In this document: positions 22,746-31,356 of the stretch, one piece after another
Layout: each line of letters starts with the position of its first letter
Numbering within the stretch: position 1 is the stretch's first letter
Source: Candidatus Anderseniibacteriota bacterium
GTDB taxonomy: Bacteria; Patescibacteriota; Andersenbacteria; UBA10190
Assembly: GCA_040900375.1 (NCBI GenBank)
Contig: JBBDZC010000018.1
Span: 567 to 64,566 of the forward strand
Direction: 5' to 3'
Length of the DNA stretch: 64,000 nt
The notes under the pieces: generated by a model
Seen by the model: the letters and a program-made list of their open reading frames with translations, nothing else
Database searches by the model: none
Told to the model about the DNA's origin: nothing
Program-made: the position numbers and the translations under genes

Positions 22746-24041
22746 TTACTTACGGACGGCGGGCGTCGCCCGCAGCAACGACAGAGCATCACCGACCATG
22801 TAGAGCGAGCCGGTAATGAGCATCATGCTGTCAGGTTTTATCAGCTTGCGGCCCACGGCTAGGGCGTGGGCAAGGGCAGGAATTTCCTGAACATGGGGGT
22901 GATGCGCTCGCAAAGCGCGAGCGACTACGCTGGTATCTTCCGGCTCATAACTACCTTGGGTAACGATTACCTGATCAAACAAAGGGGCAATATCTGTTTC
23001 CAGGCCTAACTGCTTGCCCTTCTTCTGGGCTACAATGAGAACATCAGGGTGCGGCAGCGGCATAGTTTTTAAGAAAGCGGCTAGTGCCTGCACGCCATCA
23101 TTATTGTGCGCTCCGTCTACCAAAATAAAGGGCTTACGGGAGACAATATCGAGCCGGCCTTCCCACACTGCCTGGCTTAGGCCGCGGGTCAGATGAGTGG
23201 GAGTGAGGACAAAGCCCTGGTCACGCAAGAGATGTAGCGTAAGCAACGCGGTGCAGGCATTGGTAATTTGGTGCTGACCCAAAAGCTTGATAAAGAACGT
23301 GTCGGTGATGGTCCCGGTAGTTGTAAATGTTTGTCCAGCTAACGAGGCGTGCGACTCTTTGACCGTAAGATGTTCGCCCACAGAATAGAAAGGTGCTTGT
23401 TGCTGCTGGCAGACGCCGGCAAAGTATTGCAGCAGTGCTGGTTGTGTCTCGGCAGTCACTACCGGTTGCCCCCTTTTAATAATCCCGGCTTTATTAGCAG
23501 CAATCGCCGCCTTATCCTCGCCAATCTCGGGCACATGGTCCAGGCCGATATTGGTAATAACAGCAACCAGCGGCGTAATGACATTGGTTGCATCAAGTGC
23601 TCCGCCCATGCCAACTTCAATAATGGCAATATCAACGCGGGCGCGGGCAAACTGTAAGAAAGTCAGAGCGGTCGTAAACTCAAAAAAAGTTATGGTTAGG
23701 TCGTAAGCGGCAATTTGAGAACGAACATGGGCGATTAAAGCAATTAACGCTTCATCGGTAATCGCTTGACCGTCGACCCGGATGCGTTCATTGAACTGGT
23801 AGAGATGCGGGCTGGTATACAGACCGACTTTATAGCCAGCAGCGCGCAAGGTTGATTCTAAGAAACTGGCAGTACTGCCTTTTCCGTTGGTGCCAGTTAT
23901 ATGGACACTGGGAAAAGAGGTCTGGGGATTGCCGAGGATAGCGCACAGCTTAGTCATGACCTCGAGGCCCAGCTTAATGCCGAAACGCTCGAGGTCGTAA
24001 ATGTACGCTAGCTGTTCATTGAGAGGGGCGGCTTGTGGCAT
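22746..24041 (-). CDS. folC: Folylpolyglutamate synthase / dihydrofolate synthase (Mur ligase family)
   Basis: YIYDLERFGIKLGLEVMTKLCAILGNP...HITGTNGKGSTASFLESTLRAAGYKVGLYTSPHL, typical of FolC. 431 aa. Confidence 0.8.
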   Translation of the reverse strand: MPQAAPLNEQLAYIYDLERFGIKLGLEVMTKLCAILGNPQTSFPSVHITGTNGKGSTASFLESTLRAAGYKVGLYTSPHLYQFNERIRVDGQAITDEALIALIAHVRSQIAAYDLTITFFEFTTALTFLQFARARVDIAIIEVGMGGALDATNVITPLVAVITNIGLDHVPEIGEDKAAIAANKAGIIKRGQPVVTAETQPALLQYFAGVCQQQQAPFYSVGEHLTVKESHASLAGQTFTTTGTITDTFFIKLLGQHQITNACTALLTLHLLRDQGFVLTPTHLTRGLSQAVWEGRLDIVSRKPFILVDGAHNNDGVQALAAFLKTMPLPHPDVLIVAQKKGKQLGLETDIAPLFDQVIVTQGSYEPEDTSVVARALRAHHPHVQEIPALAHALAVGRKLIKPDSMMLITGSLYMVGDALSLLRATPAVRK

Positions 24042-24110: not shown

Positions 24111-25826
24111 ATGAAATACCCTCTCCCCCGCGACAGTTTTGCCCCGCCCTTTGCGCCAGATGCTTATACCCCTGCAGAAAAGTGGCAACTGGTCCCCTTT
24201 TTTTCTAATCTTGATCAGTCAGTATATGCGCCGCTCATTTTTTCCCCGGAAGTTATCGGCGCTTTATGTTCCCGCGCCAGCCGCGCCGAAGATGACTTGA
24301 GGACCATATTCTTGCGTGAATATGTGGCACCGTTTCTCGAGCCCGAGACAGCTGCTACCGAAGCGGCTGCTCATCATGGTAAAAGCCTCAAGGAATTCAT
24401 TAATTTTCTCCAGGCTTACCCCATTGAGGAAATTTTTTCCAATCCGCGGGCACGGTCATTCTACGCCAAGTGGCTGGCTCAATATGGTGATGATTCGATC
24501 GCCCAGATGGCGGGTATGCATCTCGTTTTTGCCTCGCTCTCGCAAGTTGCGATTAAACATTTCGAAGATCAACGAATTGGCTTAGCCCCGATTGAAAAAT
24601 CGACGCGCTATGTTGATTACTCAACTAAAATCAATGGCCGTTGGCGCTACTATACTGATCCCACTCTCCGAGAATTAGGCTTGGAGCAAGCGTATGAGAC
24701 CGCCATGGATGGTTTGTTTACAACCTACGGACAGCTCCTGCCCCGGCTCATAAGGTGGCTAAGTGAACGCTTCCCGGAGGAAAAACGGTCAGTGGTGGAA
24801 AAGAAGGCTTTTGATGTCTTGCGGGGCTTGCTACCAACCTCGACCCTTTCTCAAGTGGCCTTTTTCGGCAATGGCCAAGCTTACGAATATCTTGTCAGCC
24901 GCTCGGGACACCATCCCTTGGGAGAAATCCGCTGGGCTAGCGAACGTGCATATGAAGAACTGTATAAAGTTGCCCCTTCATTCTTACGCCGCATTAAAGA
25001 TCCTGAGAGTCAAGCACTCGTCAACTCATACCAAGAATATTTAAGCGGCAAGGGCGAGCGCTTGCGGCCTTTGGTGGATAGATTTACGGCTGCCCACCAA
25101 AAAGTAGCGCAGCAAACAAAGGAAGAGACTTCAGTTAAGCTCTTAGAGTACGACCTGGAGGGCGAAGCAAAAGTGATTACCGGCATGCTTTATGCTGCCC
25201 CGAATAATCATGCCAGTTGGTCGGATATATTTTCTCGAGTACGCGCGCTTAACGAGAGTGAGCGGCAGGTAGTCCTGAATGCTTACTTTATCGGCCGCAC
25301 GCAACGTTGGCAAAAGGTTGGGCGCGCCCTCGAAAATATCTTTGTCCGCTTTGAAATCATGATGAATATTGGTGCCTGGCGTGATTTACACCGTCATCGC
25401 ATGCTCACCCAGCAACGGCAGTACTTTTCCTGTATGCATGGATATGACGTGCCGCCAGAGCTGATGAGCGCGGGCCTAGCGGATGAGTTTACAGAGGCAA
25501 TAGAACGGGTGGAGCGCGTGCATCAACACATCGCCGAATACGACCTGGACCTGGCCCAGTATGCGGTGACCATGGCCCACCGGGTACGATTCATGCAGTG
25601 GACTAACTTGCGGGAATGTTTCTGGGAGATTGAGTTACGCACGATTCCCGAGGGGCATCCGGACTACCGGAGAATCGAGCAAGAGAAATTTCGTTTGCTC
25701 CAGAAAGTTTATCCCCTGCTGGCAGAGCGCATGCATGTCAATTTAGACGAGTATAACTTTGCCCGCCGCGGTCAGGAAGAAAAAATCCAGGCTAAGCTCA
25801 AAGAGTTGACCAAGGTTAACGCCTGA
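24111..25826 (+). CDS. thyX: FAD-dependent thymidylate synthase, tandem two-domain ThyX type
   Basis: The C-terminal half carries WRDLHRHRML (RHR motif) and MQWTNLRECFWEIELRT (ThyX NLR...WEI block). The N-terminal half aligns to the same fold (HLVFASLSQVAIKHFEDQRIG...STRYVDYS) but lacks the RHR motif. At 571 aa it matches known duplicated ThyX proteins. Confidence 0.6.
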   Translation: MKYPLPRDSFAPPFAPDAYTPAEKWQLVPFFSNLDQSVYAPLIFSPEVIGALCSRASRAEDDLRTIFLREYVAPFLEPETAATEAAAHHGKSLKEFINFLQAYPIEEIFSNPRARSFYAKWLAQYGDDSIAQMAGMHLVFASLSQVAIKHFEDQRIGLAPIEKSTRYVDYSTKINGRWRYYTDPTLRELGLEQAYETAMDGLFTTYGQLLPRLIRWLSERFPEEKRSVVEKKAFDVLRGLLPTSTLSQVAFFGNGQAYEYLVSRSGHHPLGEIRWASERAYEELYKVAPSFLRRIKDPESQALVNSYQEYLSGKGERLRPLVDRFTAAHQKVAQQTKEETSVKLLEYDLEGEAKVITGMLYAAPNNHASWSDIFSRVRALNESERQVVLNAYFIGRTQRWQKVGRALENIFVRFEIMMNIGAWRDLHRHRMLTQQRQYFSCMHGYDVPPELMSAGLADEFTEAIERVERVHQHIAEYDLDLAQYAVTMAHRVRFMQWTNLRECFWEIELRTIPEGHPDYRRIEQEKFRLLQKVYPLLAERMHVNLDEYNFARRGQEEKIQAKLKELTKVNA

Positions 25827-25910: not shown

Positions 25911-27266
25911 ATGATGTCCCGAGCCCTCAAAAAAACTGATCTGCGTGTTTGGCGTATTCTCCAGCAAGAACAAGCGCGGCAGCAAGATAAATTATCTCTC
26001 ATCCCTTCGGAAAACTTTTTTTCGCCGGCCGTGCGCGAGGCCGTGGGCTCGGTGTTTATGCACAAATACGCGGAAGGCAATGTGGGCCAGCGCTACTATG
26101 AGGGCAACCAATTGGTAGATGAGCTGGAGTCGCTGGCGCAGGCGCGGGCGAAAAAGGTTTTTAAGTTGCCCCGCGACTGGGAGGTTAATGTGCAAGCCCT
26201 ATCGGGCAGTAACGCTAATCTGGCTGTTTACCTGGCGCTCTTAAAATTCGGCGACACCATGATGGGTATGTATCTGCCGGATGGCGGGCATTTATCTCAC
26301 GGCTGGTCATATGAGCCTCACCAACAACAAGATCCAACCAACTTGGCGTATCTAGGCGGTCGGCGCAAAGTCAACATTTCCTCGCGGATCTTCACCACGA
26401 TTCAATACAAAACTAACCCGAAGACCCAGCGCTTCGATTATCAAGAAATTGAGAAAATTGCAAAACGCTACAAGCCGCGTCTTATTATTACGGGGGGAAC
26501 AGCTTATCCTCGAGACATTAACTACCGCCGCTTCAAAAAAATTGCGCACCAGGTAGGCGCGCTCTATTTAGCAGACATTGCTCACGAAGCGGGGCTTGTG
26601 GCGGCGGGCGTGATTAATTCTCCCGTCGGGATCGCCGATGTTGTCACGATGACCACGCATAAAACATTGCGGGCTGGCCGGGGCGCTATCATTTTAGCCC
26701 GCGCCGAACTCATCAAAAAAATAAATCGCGCGGTGCTACCAGGGCTCCAGGGTGGCCCTTTTAATAATAATATTGCAGGGATTTGCGTCGGCTTAGGCGA
26801 AGCCCTCACACCACAATTTAAGCGATACGCTAAGCAGGTCATCACCAATGCCCACTATCTGGCCGAGTATCTTCAACGATATGGTTTTGTGCTTGTCTCG
26901 GGTGGCGTTGATAAACATCTGATTCTCATTAATCTGACTAGTCAGCCGATCCTCGGCAAAAAGTTTGCCCGGGCTTTAGACTATGGGGGCTTGGTTACCA
27001 ATTTCAATACTATGCCGCAAGAGACCCGTTCCCCCGCTGACCCTTCCGCGCTTCGGCTCGGGACTCCCTGGGTGACTACCCGCGGTATGGGTAAGCCGGA
27101 AATGAAGCAGATTGCCCAGTGGCTTAAGCACGTGATGGAAATCGCCTCACCCTGGGCCGAGACTCCGTTCCCCGAATTCGAGCGGCGTGTGCGGGCATCG
27201 CGGGAAATTAAAGACATCGCCCAGGTGGTAAAAAAGCTTTGCCGGCGGTTTCCGCTGGCCTTTTGA
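25911..27266 (+). CDS. glyA: Serine hydroxymethyltransferase
   Basis: LIPSENFFSPAVREAVGSVFMHKYAEGNVGQRYYEG...; PLP-lysine region TTHKTLRAGRGAII. 451 aa. Confidence 0.95.
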   Translation: MMSRALKKTDLRVWRILQQEQARQQDKLSLIPSENFFSPAVREAVGSVFMHKYAEGNVGQRYYEGNQLVDELESLAQARAKKVFKLPRDWEVNVQALSGSNANLAVYLALLKFGDTMMGMYLPDGGHLSHGWSYEPHQQQDPTNLAYLGGRRKVNISSRIFTTIQYKTNPKTQRFDYQEIEKIAKRYKPRLIITGGTAYPRDINYRRFKKIAHQVGALYLADIAHEAGLVAAGVINSPVGIADVVTMTTHKTLRAGRGAIILARAELIKKINRAVLPGLQGGPFNNNIAGICVGLGEALTPQFKRYAKQVITNAHYLAEYLQRYGFVLVSGGVDKHLILINLTSQPILGKKFARALDYGGLVTNFNTMPQETRSPADPSALRLGTPWVTTRGMGKPEMKQIAQWLKHVMEIASPWAETPFPEFERRVRASREIKDIAQVVKKLCRRFPLAF

Positions 27267-27319: not shown

Positions 27320-27895
27320 ATGATTTTGTCTGACCGTGATATCAAAGCCGCGCTTAAGTCCGGGAAAATTGTGGTGAAGCCAAAACCCAACTTGGTCATT
27401 CAACTCGGCACCTCGAGTCTTGATCTGCGCCTCGGGTACCATTTTCGTGTCTTTAAGCATCGCCGCAAGCCTTTTATTGACCCTTTGGATCCCGACACGA
27501 TGACGGGAATGACCGAGGAAGTTAAAATCAGCCGGGCGCAACCTTACGTTATCCAACCGGATGAATTTGTCTTAGCTTCAGTTTTGGAATGGATAGAATT
27601 ACCAGACAACATCTCGGCGCGGATTGATGGTCGTAGCAGTCTGGGTCGTATTGGTCTAGTGATCCATTCTACGGCAGGCCATATTGATGCTGGCTTTCAG
27701 GGTTCAATTACGATGGAATTAAGCAATATTGGCATGATGCCAATATTGCTCTATCCCAAAATGCGCATTTGCCAATTAGTATTTGAGCCACTATCTTCAG
27801 CCGCCGAGCGACCTTATACCCAAAAACCCGGCGCCAAGTACGCGGGTAAGACCAGACCGGCCGAGGCAGCATTAGCACAAGAAATCGTTGAATGA
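27320..27895 (+). CDS. dcd: dCTP deaminase
   Basis: MILSDRDIKAALKSGKIVVKP...SSLDLRLG...RSSLGRIGL, the Dcd/dUTPase-fold signature. 191 aa. Confidence 0.9.
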   Translation: MILSDRDIKAALKSGKIVVKPKPNLVIQLGTSSLDLRLGYHFRVFKHRRKPFIDPLDPDTMTGMTEEVKISRAQPYVIQPDEFVLASVLEWIELPDNISARIDGRSSLGRIGLVIHSTAGHIDAGFQGSITMELSNIGMMPILLYPKMRICQLVFEPLSSAAERPYTQKPGAKYAGKTRPAEAALAQEIVE

Positions 27896-28314
27896 TTAAG
27901 TTCAGGGTGAAAAAACTGGCCCCGGGTGCGAAACTGCCGACAAAACATATTGCCACAGATGCGGGCATTGACATTTATACTAACGAATCAAAAACTTTAA
28001 AACCAAGTGAAACCTACCTTTTTTCCACGGGTATTGCTGTCGAGTTTTCCCCGGGATATGTGGCTTTGCTCTGGGATCGCTCTGGATTAGGTAGTAAAGG
28101 CATTCACCGTTTAGCTGGAGTAATTGACTCGGGCTACCGCGGCGAATGGAAAGTGGTGCTGCTCAATACCACTAAAAAATCTTTTACCATTCATAAAGGC
28201 GACAAAATTGTGCAGTGTATCATGCAAAAATTTGAGCCTGTAAAAATTATGGAAGTCAAAAAATTGCGGCTCACCAAGCGCGGCAGTAAAGGTTTTGGCA
28301 GCTCGGGGCGCTAG
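27892..28314 (+). CDS. dut: dUTP diphosphatase
   Basis: AGIDIYT...IDSGYRGEWKVVLLNTTKKSFTIHKGDKIVQ (dUTPase motifs 3-4). Overlaps the dcd stop by 4 nt. Confidence 0.9.
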   Translation: MIKFRVKKLAPGAKLPTKHIATDAGIDIYTNESKTLKPSETYLFSTGIAVEFSPGYVALLWDRSGLGSKGIHRLAGVIDSGYRGEWKVVLLNTTKKSFTIHKGDKIVQCIMQKFEPVKIMEVKKLRLTKRGSKGFGSSGR

Positions 28315-28364: not shown

Positions 28365-28736
28365 TCACAAAAGTTGCTTGAGTATGAGGATAATATGCTC
28401 TTCGGTAATATAGGGATGGATTGCCTTAGTCACAAACTGGATCGCGGGGGAGGCTTCTTCAGCGCCTTCATAAAACGCGATGACTTCCTTGCCTGCCGCA
28501 TTCGCCCACCCAAGCTCAATGCCGCTTCCCGTAGAAGCAATGGAAACCTCAGCAATAACGAGGTCGCAGCTGGCTATATCCTGCTTAGTGATGTGAAGTT
28601 CCTCCTTCTTCTCGCGGGGATGGATTAACTCTACCCGGCCTTTCTCTTCAGCCGCGAATTGCTCCAGCGCATTGAAAAAGATGGGAGTGTGGCGGTGACC
28701 GCCGGAGGGGTGGGAAATAAACCACTTTGACATCAC
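28365..28736 (-). CDS. DNPH1/Rcl-like 2'-deoxynucleoside 5'-phosphate N-hydrolase (nucleoside 2-deoxyribosyltransferase fold)
   Basis: CDLVIAEVSIASTGSGIELGWANAAGKEVIAFYE aligns with the Rcl/DNPH1 core DVVVAEVT.PSLGVGYELG.A.ALGKPIL, including the catalytic Glu of the ELG motif. N-terminal WFISHPSGGHR compares with YFCGSIRGGR. 123 aa. Confidence 0.6.
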   Translation of the reverse strand: MMSKWFISHPSGGHRHTPIFFNALEQFAAEEKGRVELIHPREKKEELHITKQDIASCDLVIAEVSIASTGSGIELGWANAAGKEVIAFYEGAEEASPAIQFVTKAIHPYITEEHIILILKQLL

Positions 28737-28785: not shown

Positions 28786-29454
28786 CTAACTGGCGATGAG
28801 CCGAGGTTTAACATACTGCCAGACTTCTTCATGAAGATCTTCACGTGTTCGCTCTTGGCCCTGGCCATCGACACCGGCAATTGTAATCCAACCCTGTACC
28901 GCAGCAACTTTAAGATAGGCTGCCCGGATCGCGGTCAGTTTTTCTTTGGTCTCGAAGAAATCTTTATTCTTTTCCTTCAAGCGCCGCAGTGAGACAGCCA
29001 CAGGGGTATCAAGAAAAAGAACTAGGTCGGGTTGCGGCAGAGTGGGTTGACCCGTAAAGCAGAGCCACCAAATCCAATCATACATTTCTTGCCACTCCTG
29101 GCCGCGTAACCCCATGGTCTGGTACGCAAACGCGCTGGTACAAAAACGGTCCGAGACAACGAGCTGGCGGCCCGATTTTTCACTGGTGTGAGCAGTGATG
29201 TCCTCGGCACGCGAGAAGAAATCCTGAATGTATAACAACGCCTGCTCCCGGCGAGAGAAGGGTTTTTTATTCTTATGGAGCAGGAACTTATCGTAGATCA
29301 GGCGCCCGGTTGCCCGATCTTCTTGGGGAAAATGGAGCGAGAGCGGCTGATATTTTTCTTGCTGGAGGCGGCGCACGAGCCAGTCCGTCTGGGTTTGGCT
29401 ACCGCCCGCATCCAGGGCTTCAATAACGATGAAGGGAGAAGGTCGCTTAGGCAT
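28786..29454 (-). CDS. Thymidylate kinase-family paralog with degenerate Walker A (Lys replaced)
   Basis: Tmk fold is indicated by FIVIEALDAGGSQTQ (consensus IVIEGLDGSGKSTQ) and VVSDRFCTSAFAYQ (DRY..S.AYQ). The P-loop Lys and Ser/Thr are replaced (GGSQT). The gene overlaps the upstream tmk stop by 8 nt. Confidence 0.55.
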   Translation of the reverse strand: MPKRPSPFIVIEALDAGGSQTQTDWLVRRLQQEKYQPLSLHFPQEDRATGRLIYDKFLLHKNKKPFSRREQALLYIQDFFSRAEDITAHTSEKSGRQLVVSDRFCTSAFAYQTMGLRGQEWQEMYDWIWWLCFTGQPTLPQPDLVLFLDTPVAVSLRRLKEKNKDFFETKEKLTAIRAAYLKVAAVQGWITIAGVDGQGQERTREDLHEEVWQYVKPRLIAS

Positions 29455-30175
29455 AGGCTTGGAGTAACTGCGGAAATTTAAGACGCAGGTTTTCCCAAAC
29501 TAATTCTGCCACGTCATCAACGTTCAATAGCTCCTCTCCCTCCACACAGAGGATCCGGAGAAACCGCGCGGGATCTTGCTGGCACAGGAGATCATATTCA
29601 TTGTAGAGTCGTTGTTGAATTTCCAGGTGATCGGTATACTCATCCTTGTCTTGCATCTTTTCTTTTCGTTTCTCTAAAAGACCAACAGAGATCTCGGGCA
29701 GTATATCTAAAAAAAGTGAAATGTGTTCCAAGGGCATCTGTTGCTCTTGATATTCATAGCGGCTAACAGCGGCTTGAATTTTATCCCGAAAGAGTTCGGT
29801 TTCCTGCACGTCCAATCCCTCAATGGTCATAAAGGCAATACTGCTGGCTACGTACCGATCATAGATGACTATTTCTCCTAATTTGAGGGCCTGTAGAACT
29901 TCTGCGCGGTGCTCGGCACGATTGTGTGCAAATAGGCGCATTTTTTCCGGCCACGGTATCGCCTGCCAGCGCCCATCTTTATTCTGGAGCTTTTGCTTTA
30001 ATTTTTGGCCGCTGGAAGTGGTATAATCGGGACTTTCAAAATGATGAACAACGTGCCCCATAAATCGCAGGCGCCGGAGGAGATGCTGAACCTGGGTATG
30101 CTTGCCGGACGAATCAAGGCCATCAAAAGCAATCAGCAGGCCAGTGGGTTTAGGCGCAGGACACATACATTCCAC
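29447..30175 (-). CDS. tmk: Thymidylate (dTMP) kinase
   Basis: LIAFDGLDSSGKHTQ (intact Walker A), IYDRYVASSIAFM (DRY motif), and a LID-like LEKRKEKMQDKDEYTDHLE segment. The true start is probably an internal Met (MCPAPK...). Confidence 0.7.
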   Translation of the reverse strand: MECMCPAPKPTGLLIAFDGLDSSGKHTQVQHLLRRLRFMGHVVHHFESPDYTTSSGQKLKQKLQNKDGRWQAIPWPEKMRLFAHNRAEHRAEVLQALKLGEIVIYDRYVASSIAFMTIEGLDVQETELFRDKIQAAVSRYEYQEQQMPLEHISLFLDILPEISVGLLEKRKEKMQDKDEYTDHLEIQQRLYNEYDLLCQQDPARFLRILCVEGEELLNVDDVAELVWENLRLKFPQLLQAYA

Positions 30176-30260: not shown

Positions 30261-30935
30261 TTACAGCGCCACCCGGATACCTGGACTCATGGTGCTCTTA
30301 AGTGTGCAATTTTTAATTAGCCGGCCTTTGACGGCGGATGGCTTGGCTTGGCGGACAGCTTCGAGGACAGCCGTCACGTTTTTGACAATCTGGTCTGTTT
30401 CCCAGCTAGTCTTACCCACCGCTTCATGGATATTGCCAAGCTGATCCATCTTAAATGACAATTTACCGCCGAGAAGTTCCCGGACCACACTGGCTGGATC
30501 GGCACTCACTGTTCCCGTCTTGGGATTAGGCATTAATCCCTGGGGGCCTAAGGTGCGGGCAATCTTAGCAATTTTAGGCATCATCGCGGGCGTGGCCACT
30601 ACTACATCAGCCTTAAGCTGACCGGATTTCACAACGGCCGCAATGAGCTCTTCTCCCCCAACAATCGCGGCGCCAGCTTGCTGGGCCGTTGCCTGCTCCG
30701 CGTCATCCGCAAAGACAGCAATCTTCTTGGCTTTGGGGGCCCCAGCCGGCAAGGTAACACTCGCCCGCACGATCTGATCAGATTTAGTAGGATCAACTCC
30801 AAGATGAATATGAACTTCAATCGTCTCATCCACATTCGGCCGCGCGTGCTCGCGCAAAAAGGCGACTGCGGTGGTTAGATCAACCGCTTGCGCCGGGGCT
30901 TTCTCCTGCACCGTTTTGTATCGTTTACTGCGCAT
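30261..30935 (-). CDS. rplA: 50S ribosomal protein L1
   Basis: VQEKAPAQAVDLTTAVAFLREHARPNVDETIEVHIHLGVDP...KIAVFA. The ORF-track start at 30977 overlaps rplK; the internal Met at 30935 (MRSKRYKTVQEK) is the likely start. Confidence 0.9.
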   Translation of the reverse strand: MRSKRYKTVQEKAPAQAVDLTTAVAFLREHARPNVDETIEVHIHLGVDPTKSDQIVRASVTLPAGAPKAKKIAVFADDAEQATAQQAGAAIVGGEELIAAVVKSGQLKADVVVATPAMMPKIAKIARTLGPQGLMPNPKTGTVSADPASVVRELLGGKLSFKMDQLGNIHEAVGKTSWETDQIVKNVTAVLEAVRQAKPSAVKGRLIKNCTLKSTMSPGIRVAL

Positions 30936-30936
30936 A

Positions 30937-31356
30937 CTATTGAACAGTAATACCCATGGACCGAGCCGTCCCTTCAATAATTTTCATAGCGGCCTCTAGG
31001 TCACGGGCAGACAAGTCGGCCATTTTACGTTCCGCAATCTCCCGCACCTGGGCGCGTTTGACAGTGCCTACTTTATTAGTATTCGGCATGCCAGAACCTT
31101 TGGTCACTTTGGCGGCTTTCTTGAGTAGTTCGGCAGCGGGCGGAGTTTTTAGTTTCAGCGACATGCTGCGATCATCATAAATTGTCACCTCAACAGGAAT
31201 AATATCACCCATCATTTCTCGGGTCATATCGTTAAACCTGGTAACGAATTCTTGCAAGTTAACACCATGCTGCCCTAAAGCTGTTCCTACCGGCGGCGCC
31301 GGGGTGGCTTTACCACCGGGAGCTTGTAATTTAACAATGGTCTTTATCTGGGGCAT
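30937..31356 (-). CDS. rplK: 50S ribosomal protein L11
   Basis: [42 protein letters not shown]. Confidence 0.92.

Follow-up and report, generated by a model that had tools for sequence, protein, structure and literature searches.

Few catalytic residues are as invariant as the Walker A lysine of thymidylate kinase (Tmk), an essential enzyme. Every natural P-loop kinase domain known to us that lacks this lysine is a non-catalytic binder, for instance the adenosine phosphosulphate kinase-like domain of fungal ATP sulfurylase, which has a lysine-less P-loop kinase fold. Sulfolobus acidocaldarius possesses PPK3, an a2b2 heteromer of cPPK3 (Saci_2019) and the inactive, regulatory rPPK3 (Saci_2020), both of which are exapted Tmk paralogs; rPPK3 has kept the ATP-binding residues and lost the arginine of the DRx motif, the dTMP-binding residues are lost in both subunits, and the genes lie amid polyphosphate and phosphate genes (ppx, pstSC, CHAD, SixA, NUDIX) (PMC12995831). 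The guanylate kinase-like (GK) domain of MAGUK proteins is a nucleoside monophosphate (NMP) kinase fold in which catalysis has been lost and the pocket is reused for binding (PMC3335814, PMC4718807). The current study concerns tmkB, a lysine-less Tmk paralog that directly follows a lysine-bearing paralog, tmkA, in a 64,000-nucleotide stretch (the window) of contig JBBDZC010000018.1 from a Candidatus Anderseniibacteriota bacterium, a member of the candidate phyla radiation (CPR). We find that the P-loop without lysine is fixed and under selection in a functional protein, and that tmkB is a working protein and not a broken gene. The protein would be an NMP kinase paralog of a pseudo-enzyme or atypical type, and full-text searches of the literature turned up no account of any Tmk or NMP kinase without the lysine.

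tmkB, 28786-29454, minus strand: lysine-less Tmk-family paralog with an ATG start, 222 amino acids (aa)
tmkA, 29447-30175, minus strand: lysine-bearing Tmk paralog, similar to those of Mycobacterium tuberculosis and eukaryotes, 242 aa from the GTG at 30175
Overlap of 8 nt, ATGCCTAA, 29447-29454, minus strand: the tmkB ATG within the tmkA stop (TAA)
Remodelled P-loop of tmkB (E12-T23), EALDAGGSQTQT, 29386-29421, minus strand: Ser19 at the Walker A lysine, Gln20 at the Mg-binding Ser/Thr
DRF motif of tmkB (D102-R103-F104), 29143-29151, minus strand: Walker B/phosphate-clamp arginine; D102 and R103 invariant in alignments

The list of open reading frames (ORFs), read directly, places the two Tmk-fold genes in tandem, head-to-tail, on the minus strand; for tmkA, NCBI has a protein of 239 aa (P0121) that begins with the ATG at 30166. 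Both proteins match PF02223, Thymidylate_kin (73 bits for tmkB and 68 bits for tmkA; the cutoff is 27), and both miss the TIGR00041 equivalog cutoff of 83.25 bits (76.8 and 59.7 bits, respectively). The tandem arrangement with its 8-nt overlap, as claimed in an earlier reading made from the DNA alone (the sequence-only reading), is therefore confirmed. At only about 20% identity to each other, tmkA and tmkB are old paralogs. The pair resembles PPK3 in being adjacent Tmk paralogs in one operon, one complete and one without catalytic residues. However, tmkB keeps its DRF motif and has lost the P-loop lysine, which is the reverse of rPPK3; tmkA retains dTMP-site residues (F79..R83, SSxAF) that the PPK3 subunits do not; and the neighbours are rplK/rplA, dut, dcd, glyA, thyX and folC, with tmkB also occurring without tmkA. 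The MAGUK GK domain provides a functional analogy, in that tmkB has lost P-loop catalytic residues and has a conserved NMP/phosphate pocket; but the GK domain is eukaryotic, resides within scaffold proteins and binds phosphopeptides, whereas tmkB is a free-standing bacterial protein with a conserved donor-site LID.

The remodelled P-loop and pockets of tmkB

In a gap-free HMMER alignment, EALDAGGSQTQ of tmkB pairs with EGIDGSGKTTQ of the Aquifex Tmk (2pbr), which establishes both substitutions first read from the DNA. The Tmk consensus here is EGxDGxGK[ST]TQ, and tmkB thus carries AxxxxGSQ in place of the Walker A GxxxxGK[ST]: the lysine is replaced by Ser19 (codon AGC, 29400-29398), the Ser/Thr by Gln20 (codon CAA, 29397-29395) and the first Walker glycine by Ala13. 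A word-index search recovered 237 homologs of tmkB. Among the best 120 of these 237, which are 58-73% identical, all 120 carry EALDAGGS[QS] followed by T, A or S and then Q, so that serine stands at the lysine position in 120/120 and the change is conserved in orthologs. The motif is unchanged over 37 distinct tmkB DNA loci, although synonymous sites are saturated and every synonymous codon is used; the Ser19 codon is AGY without exception in these loci. No invariant stretch of the family is longer than the P-loop E12-T23.

The sequence-only reading had allowed for a sequencing error, correctable by a single base, or for a recent pseudogene with normal orthologs. Restoring AGC to AAR and CAA to ACN or TCN takes two changes each, and therefore no single-base change recovers GK[ST]. 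An artefact or a decaying pseudogene is refuted by the motif and codon census, since the motif is kept in the 120 homologs, none of which has the lysine, and in the 37 loci, which come from independent assemblies; with the ORF intact and the fold predicted at high confidence, its probability is close to nil. An apparent frameshift of tmkB in locus L033 was rejected, the sequence there being masked with a run of N and not mutated.

When 1.84 billion cluster representatives were searched exhaustively, the tmkB family came out as one 50% cluster plus fragments; beyond it the score falls from 300 to 82 bits, and the next relatives are 34% identical. The species genomes in GTDB that carry tmkB (29 loci) are all Andersenbacteria-like metagenome-assembled genomes, and the family is confined to Andersenbacteria-like CPR genomes. 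Over 24 genomes, mean pairwise identity is 0.551 for tmkB, 0.546 for RplA, 0.490 for tmkA, 0.704 for Dut and 0.740 for Dcd, and tmkB is better conserved than tmkA in 77% of genome pairs. In the source databases these proteins currently carry the name 'dTMP kinase' or 'hypothetical protein'. A 106-aa B-like fragment (P0250, REQALLYIQDFYS; no contig on record) is 47% identical and has a canonical EAINGAGKTTQ loop, which may point to an ancestor or sister of the tmkB family with the lysine; a homolog search from P0250 for a lysine-bearing sister clade recovered one further fragment and nothing else.

The AlphaFold2 model of tmkB (pLDDT 94.2) has the Tmk fold, and Foldseek matched it to Tmks only, the leading matches being those of Plasmodium falciparum, human, yeast and Aquifex (TM 0.70-0.75). 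Residues conserved at 90% or more are the E12-T23 loop including Asp15, H41-F-P-Q-E-D, A48-T-G, Y54, K56, F57, L58, R69-E-Q-A-L, Tyr75 at the stacking position, D102-R103, S107, Y111-Q112, W127, W130, the LID residues R158, K162, D165 and E168, and R202-T-R. The rest of both pockets is thus under strong purifying selection, which covers the Gly-rich anion hole, Asp15, Arg47, Tyr75 and D102-R103, as well as S107, Y111-Q112 and the LID residues Arg158, Lys162, Asp165 and Glu168. Against the human and E. coli reference sequences, R158 aligns with human R143 and E. coli R149 and K162 with E. coli R153, the LID basic residues as a group facing human K142-R143 and E. coli K148-R149/R153. We take human R143 to be the adenine-stacking arginine and human R76 the reader of thymine O4. 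The arginine at the latter position in the human, Plasmodium and E. coli Tmks aligns to an invariant Phe79 of tmkB, both by MAFFT and in a profile alignment to PfTMPK; an alternative alignment to Aquifex, with a three-residue insertion, sets Arg82 opposite it. The stacking Tyr75 is kept, and the counterpart of the base-reading arginine (F/Y-x3-R) is Phe79 or Arg82 depending on the alignment. The earlier claim that the substrate site is kept holds for DRF and S..AYQ, both of which are retained; with Phe79 aligned to the thymine-O4 arginine, the site is better described as remodelled.

Compared with canonical Tmk (EC 2.7.4.9; PF02223; 2pbr, 2wwf from P. falciparum, 1e2d from human), tmkB shares the fold, the length, the P-loop aspartate, the FP..R segment, the stacking aromatic residue, the DR[FY] clamp, S..AYQ, an Aquifex-like LID (SLRRLKEK..DFFE) and the thymidylate gene context. 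It differs in having Ser-Gln for Lys-Ser/Thr, Ala for the first Walker glycine, Phe where two of the alignments place the thymine-O4 arginine and invariant His41, Lys56, Trp127 and Trp130 of its own, and in scoring below the TIGR00041 cutoff. Its most conserved parts are donor elements other than the lysine and the Ser/Thr (the Gly loop, the LID and the DRF arginine), which fits a pocket in use. Judged from its residues, the donor pocket is remodelled but intensely conserved, not abandoned.

The partner tmkA and genomes without it

The P-loop of the tmkA family reads G[ILV]DS[ST]GK[AEH]T, and the residue after the lysine is A, E or H and never Ser/Thr, which resembles M. tuberculosis TMPK. The GLDSSGKHTQ of the window, which had been called canonical, thus has the lysine but no GK[ST], as a histidine follows. 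Invariant residues are D18, K22, T24, P46, Y48, F79, N82, R83, D103-R104-Y105, S108-S109, F112, R167 and D179; the segments F79..R83, DRY, SSxAF and DEYTD are likewise invariant. The AlphaFold2 model has a pLDDT of 95.1, and profile matches in the PDB are to the P. falciparum, human and M. tuberculosis Tmks. With the M. tuberculosis type (1g3u; NF005923) tmkA shares GxDxxGK-x-T, [FS]P.Y, LFAxxR, DRYVAS and an acidic D.Y..D LID segment; it differs in its 28% identity to that enzyme, its score of 74 bits against the NF005923 cutoff of 193 and its place in a CPR/DPANN branch. A rough neighbour-joining tree places tmkA in this 'GK-x-TQ / Leu158' branch and tmkB in the 'classical' branch with the E. 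coli and human Tmks; the LID of the tmkA branch has leucine where classical Tmks carry the adenine-stacking arginine. By its full catalytic set tmkA looks to be a competent Tmk, and as it has every residue expected of an active one, kinase activity would be supplied next door to tmkB.

At their junction, the two genes overlap by 4 nt (ATGA) in 14 distinct loci and by 8 nt in the window; in about 17 others they lie 2-94 nt apart. We consider tmkB to be co-transcribed with tmkA and frequently also translationally coupled to it, as the arrangement predicts; the earlier proposal of coupling thus stands in so far as the tandem is conserved and the overlap frequent, but the overlap is not universal. 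The gene tmkA lies directly upstream of tmkB in 25/27 GTDB species, and tmkB comes next after tmkA in 27/27 metagenome loci with enough downstream sequence; a search from the tmkA side saw tmkA in no other context.

In four loci, L013 and L033 (GTDB), L074 (JGI) and L075 (Logan), tmkA is gone, and tmkB follows rplA at a distance of 5-7 nt.

tmkB without tmkA: L013, 9998-10651
tmkB without tmkA: L074, 10001-10651
tmkB without tmkA: L075, 675-1325
tmkB without tmkA: L033

For L013 and L033 the sequence covered extends 10 kb on either side of tmkB; for L074 it is shorter, and L075 spans 3.2 kb in all. The closest relative of this clade by RplA (L010, 13% divergence) still has tmkA, so the loss is recent. 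As tmkA was lost with the constraint on tmkB unchanged, the function of tmkB does not depend on tmkA. In L074 and L075, a 94-aa GIY-YIG ORF sits between tmkB and dut.

Possible functions of tmkB and lysine-less relatives

The lysine is missing in 17 of the 141 full-length representatives closest to tmkB, six of which are tmkB members and 11 are others. These 11 (of 135 non-B representatives) have G, S, T or D instead, in loops reading GIDG[AC]GGETQ, GIDGAGS[TN]TQ, G.DG.GT[ST]TQ, GPDASGSTTQ, GLDGAGTESL or GIDGAGDTTQ. In the rough tree the lysine-less sequences form several separate lineages inside the classical branch; the members with names are Nitrososphaeria/Aigarchaeota and Gracilibacteria. 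Such genes (loops GGETQ, GTSTQ, GTTTQ and GSNTQ) were located on contigs from another CPR lineage, from archaea, on a Gracilibacteria-like contig and on a phage-like contig.

Lysine-less Tmk-like gene: L004/L005, 5001-5627
Lysine-less Tmk-like gene: L006, 5001-5627
Lysine-less Tmk-like gene: L007, 5001-5642
Lysine-less Tmk-like gene: L008, 7001-7591
Lysine-less Tmk-like gene: L039, 8001-8618

On the CPR contig the order is gyrB-secE-nusG-rplK-dcd-[GGETQ gene]-DeoC-like, a syntenic site like that of tmkB, with no tmkA within the 5-kb flanks. In the archaeal contigs the gene is alone or precedes a NUDIX gene, and on the phage-like contig it is overlapped by NT5C, with a dCMP deaminase and ThyX also present. 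The neighbours of lysine-less genes are often catabolic for deoxynucleoside mono- or triphosphates (DeoC-like, NUDIX, NT5C), as may be true of ordinary tmk genes too.

We tentatively favour, whilst holding it somewhat short of probable, that tmkB serves the dTMP branch as a functional, Tmk-derived pseudo-kinase or sensor that binds nucleotides but does not carry out ordinary ATP-dependent phosphotransfer. This is favoured because both Walker A residues are gone, tmkA is complete next door, the lysine-less folds known to us are non-catalytic and PPK3 provides a precedent. In this scheme, the remodelled NMP pocket of tmkB would bind a pyrimidine deoxynucleoside monophosphate (dNMP), either dTMP or dUMP, and the lysine-less donor pocket may hold an adenine nucleotide or phosphate without turnover. 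Either as a homodimer or paired with tmkA via the usual Tmk dimer helices, it could sense, buffer or pass on the dNMP and might thereby tune the flow from ThyX towards dTDP, or the supply that reaches the adjoining NMP N-glycosidase-like enzyme. Several points weigh against this proposal. We infer both the ligand and the target. The LID donor residues and the adenine-stacking arginine are kept, which would be superfluous for a pure dNMP binder. The lysine-less Tmk-likes of other CPR, DPANN and phage-like contigs stand alone, each as the only Tmk-like gene within 0.5-8 kb. The ratio of tmkB to RplA divergence is not raised in the lineage without tmkA (0.95 vs 0.99), and these genomes keep dcd and dut, such that a dTMP kinase is still needed from somewhere. 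Finally, the rates of tmkA and tmkB correlate with r = 0.50, lower than the correlation of each with RplA (0.70 and 0.76), and there is thus no signal of co-evolution beyond shared phylogeny. Of the earlier suggestion of a pseudo-kinase or regulatory partner, what stands is that the P-loop change is fixed in a functional protein; the idea of a regulatory partner is weakened by the clade without tmkA and by the lack of rate covariation.

It is possible, if on balance doubtful, that tmkB is instead an active dNMP kinase, possibly for dTMP, that works without the Walker A lysine and the Mg-binding Ser/Thr. Arg158, Lys162 and Lys164 of the LID and Arg103 of DRF would then neutralise the charge, Gln20 and Thr21 would bind metal or phosphate, and tmkA would be a dispensable accessory or a kinase of different specificity. 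In agreement with this, tmkA is deleted in four independent assemblies, recently and with equal constraint on tmkB; tmkB is the better conserved of the two; and the P-loop is its most conserved segment, with the LID and DRF residues retained. The 11 of 135 nearest non-B representatives likewise do without the lysine, and several lysine-less genes are the sole Tmk-like gene within 5-10 kb in organisms with tiny genomes or in a phage-like nucleotide module; in the other CPR lineage such a gene lies at the same syntenic site, with no tmkA in the 5-kb flanks. The LID arginine (the R158 column) is present in 16/17 lysine-less sequences (six of them tmkB) vs 22/124 lysine-bearing ones (94% vs 18%). 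We rejected Arg158 as a residue that compensates for the lysine, as the same column marks the whole classical branch including E. coli and human; it is a permissive background and not proof of compensation. Speaking against activity, we know of no P-loop kinase that works without the Walker lysine, and one relative (P0277) has aspartate at the lysine position, which argues against phosphate binding there. A third Tmk may lie elsewhere in these genomes, as the coverage is the locus flanks and the 64-kb window, in which none was found; the universal retention of tmkA elsewhere would also need explanation. The broader proposal, that tmkB and the recurrent lysine-less Tmk-likes of CPR, DPANN and some phages are all fully active dTMP or dNMP kinases, with tmkB the sole Tmk of the Andersenbacteria without tmkA, we regard as rather unlikely.

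A different reaction (a nucleotidase, phosphotransfer from a non-nucleotide donor or modification of a dNMP), perhaps together with the downstream NMP N-glycosidase-like protein, would account for Ser19-Gln20 being invariant and not drifting. Phe79, where it aligns to the thymine-O4 arginine, suggests an altered base preference, the lysine-less relatives lie near NT5C, NUDIX and DeoC-like genes, and tmkB lies near an Rcl/CMP-glycosidase-like gene. However, we found no candidate nucleophile or new catalytic motif in tmkB, the glycosidase-like gene is present at only about a quarter of loci, and the neighbour associations may be no more than the background of ordinary tmk genes; this reading is improbable. 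A similarly low rating falls to an obligate tmkA-tmkB heteromer with tmkB as a regulatory or scaffold subunit like rPPK3 and, further, to a PPK3-type polyphosphate kinase, which we consider quite improbable. Tandem Tmk paralogs of which one lacks catalytic residues, with stop and start codons that often overlap, tmkA never seen without tmkB and the rPPK3 precedent (PMC12995831) all point towards a heteromer; tmkB, however, outlives tmkA and is not relaxed when it does so. The polyphosphate kinase pair is ruled out on three defining features: the degeneration is opposite to that of rPPK3, with the DRx arginine kept and the P-loop lost in tmkB, the dTMP-site residues are kept in tmkA, and the neighbours are thymidylate genes and not ppx, pst or CHAD. 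In addition, the match of tmkA to ST1543 is far weaker than its matches to true Tmks. It is these three features, along with the survival of tmkB without tmkA, that keep the rating low.

The family combines a fixed Ser-Gln in place of the lysine and the Mg-binding hydroxyl with conservation at the level of a ribosomal protein, in a core dTTP cluster of a streamlined CPR lineage. Should tmkB be a non-catalytic binder, as we favour, it would be a second and mechanistically opposite case, after PPK3, of Tmk paralogs made into pseudo-enzymes, and would hint that ultra-small bacteria regulate their dTTP supply in a way not recognised so far. Should it be active, it would to our knowledge be the first natural P-loop kinase known to work without the invariant lysine; the textbook requirement of P-loop kinases would be overturned, and genes annotated as 'dTMP kinase' in the genomes of CPR, DPANN and phages would have to be read differently. 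On either reading, the automatic annotation of tmkB-type genes is uninformative at present.

Genomic neighbourhood of the pair

The genes tmkA and tmkB are part of a thymidylate supercluster (folC, thyX, glyA, dcd, dut).

folC-like Mur-ligase-family gene, 22746-24041, minus strand: PF08245 and PF02875; FOL3_C on the ortholog in L001
thyX, 24111-25826, plus strand: 571 aa, PF02511 at 112.7 bits in two Thy1 stretches
glyA, serine hydroxymethyltransferase, 25911-27266, plus strand: ORF; PF00464 on the L001 ortholog
dcd, dCTP deaminase, 27320-27895, plus strand: PF22769 at 155 bits
dut, dUTPase, 27892-28314, plus strand: PF00692 at 105 bits; conserved neighbour, convergent to the tmk operon
Protein of the NDT superfamily, 28365-28736, minus strand: 123 aa, PF05014 at 29.3 bits
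rplK-rplA, 30261-31356, minus strand: ORFs directly upstream of tmkA; tmkA and tmkB extend this L11-L1 gene string

The minus-strand string of the window, gyrB-secE-nusG-rplK-rplA-tmkA-tmkB followed by the NDT gene, converges on the folC-thyX-glyA-dcd-dut side. The order secE-nusG-rplK-rplA-tmkA-tmkB recurs in every related locus, with tmkA missing in the clade described above, and the thymidylate genes around the pair are conserved as well. PADLOC and PHROGs gave only generic Tmk-like matches and no link to a defence system. The thyX of the window resembles a tandem-fused ThyX, and its orthologs in L001 (577 aa) and L049 are of the same size. On the phage-like metagenome contig with a lysine-less gene (L007, 1-10642), one string contains RtcB, NT5C, the lysine-less Tmk-like gene, an N6/N4 DNA methyltransferase, a dCMP deaminase and a 516-aa ThyX.

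In a search of PDB sequences, the closest solved relative of the 123-aa NDT protein is the CMP N-glycosidase 4jen (2.6e-4), followed by Rcl/DNPH1 and MilB/BlsM, and the protein contains an IELGWA motif that resembles the catalytic glutamate motif. The NDT gene follows tmkB in about 13 of about 54 loci. In the window it lies 49 nt 3' of tmkB, and elsewhere it sometimes overlaps the tmkB stop.

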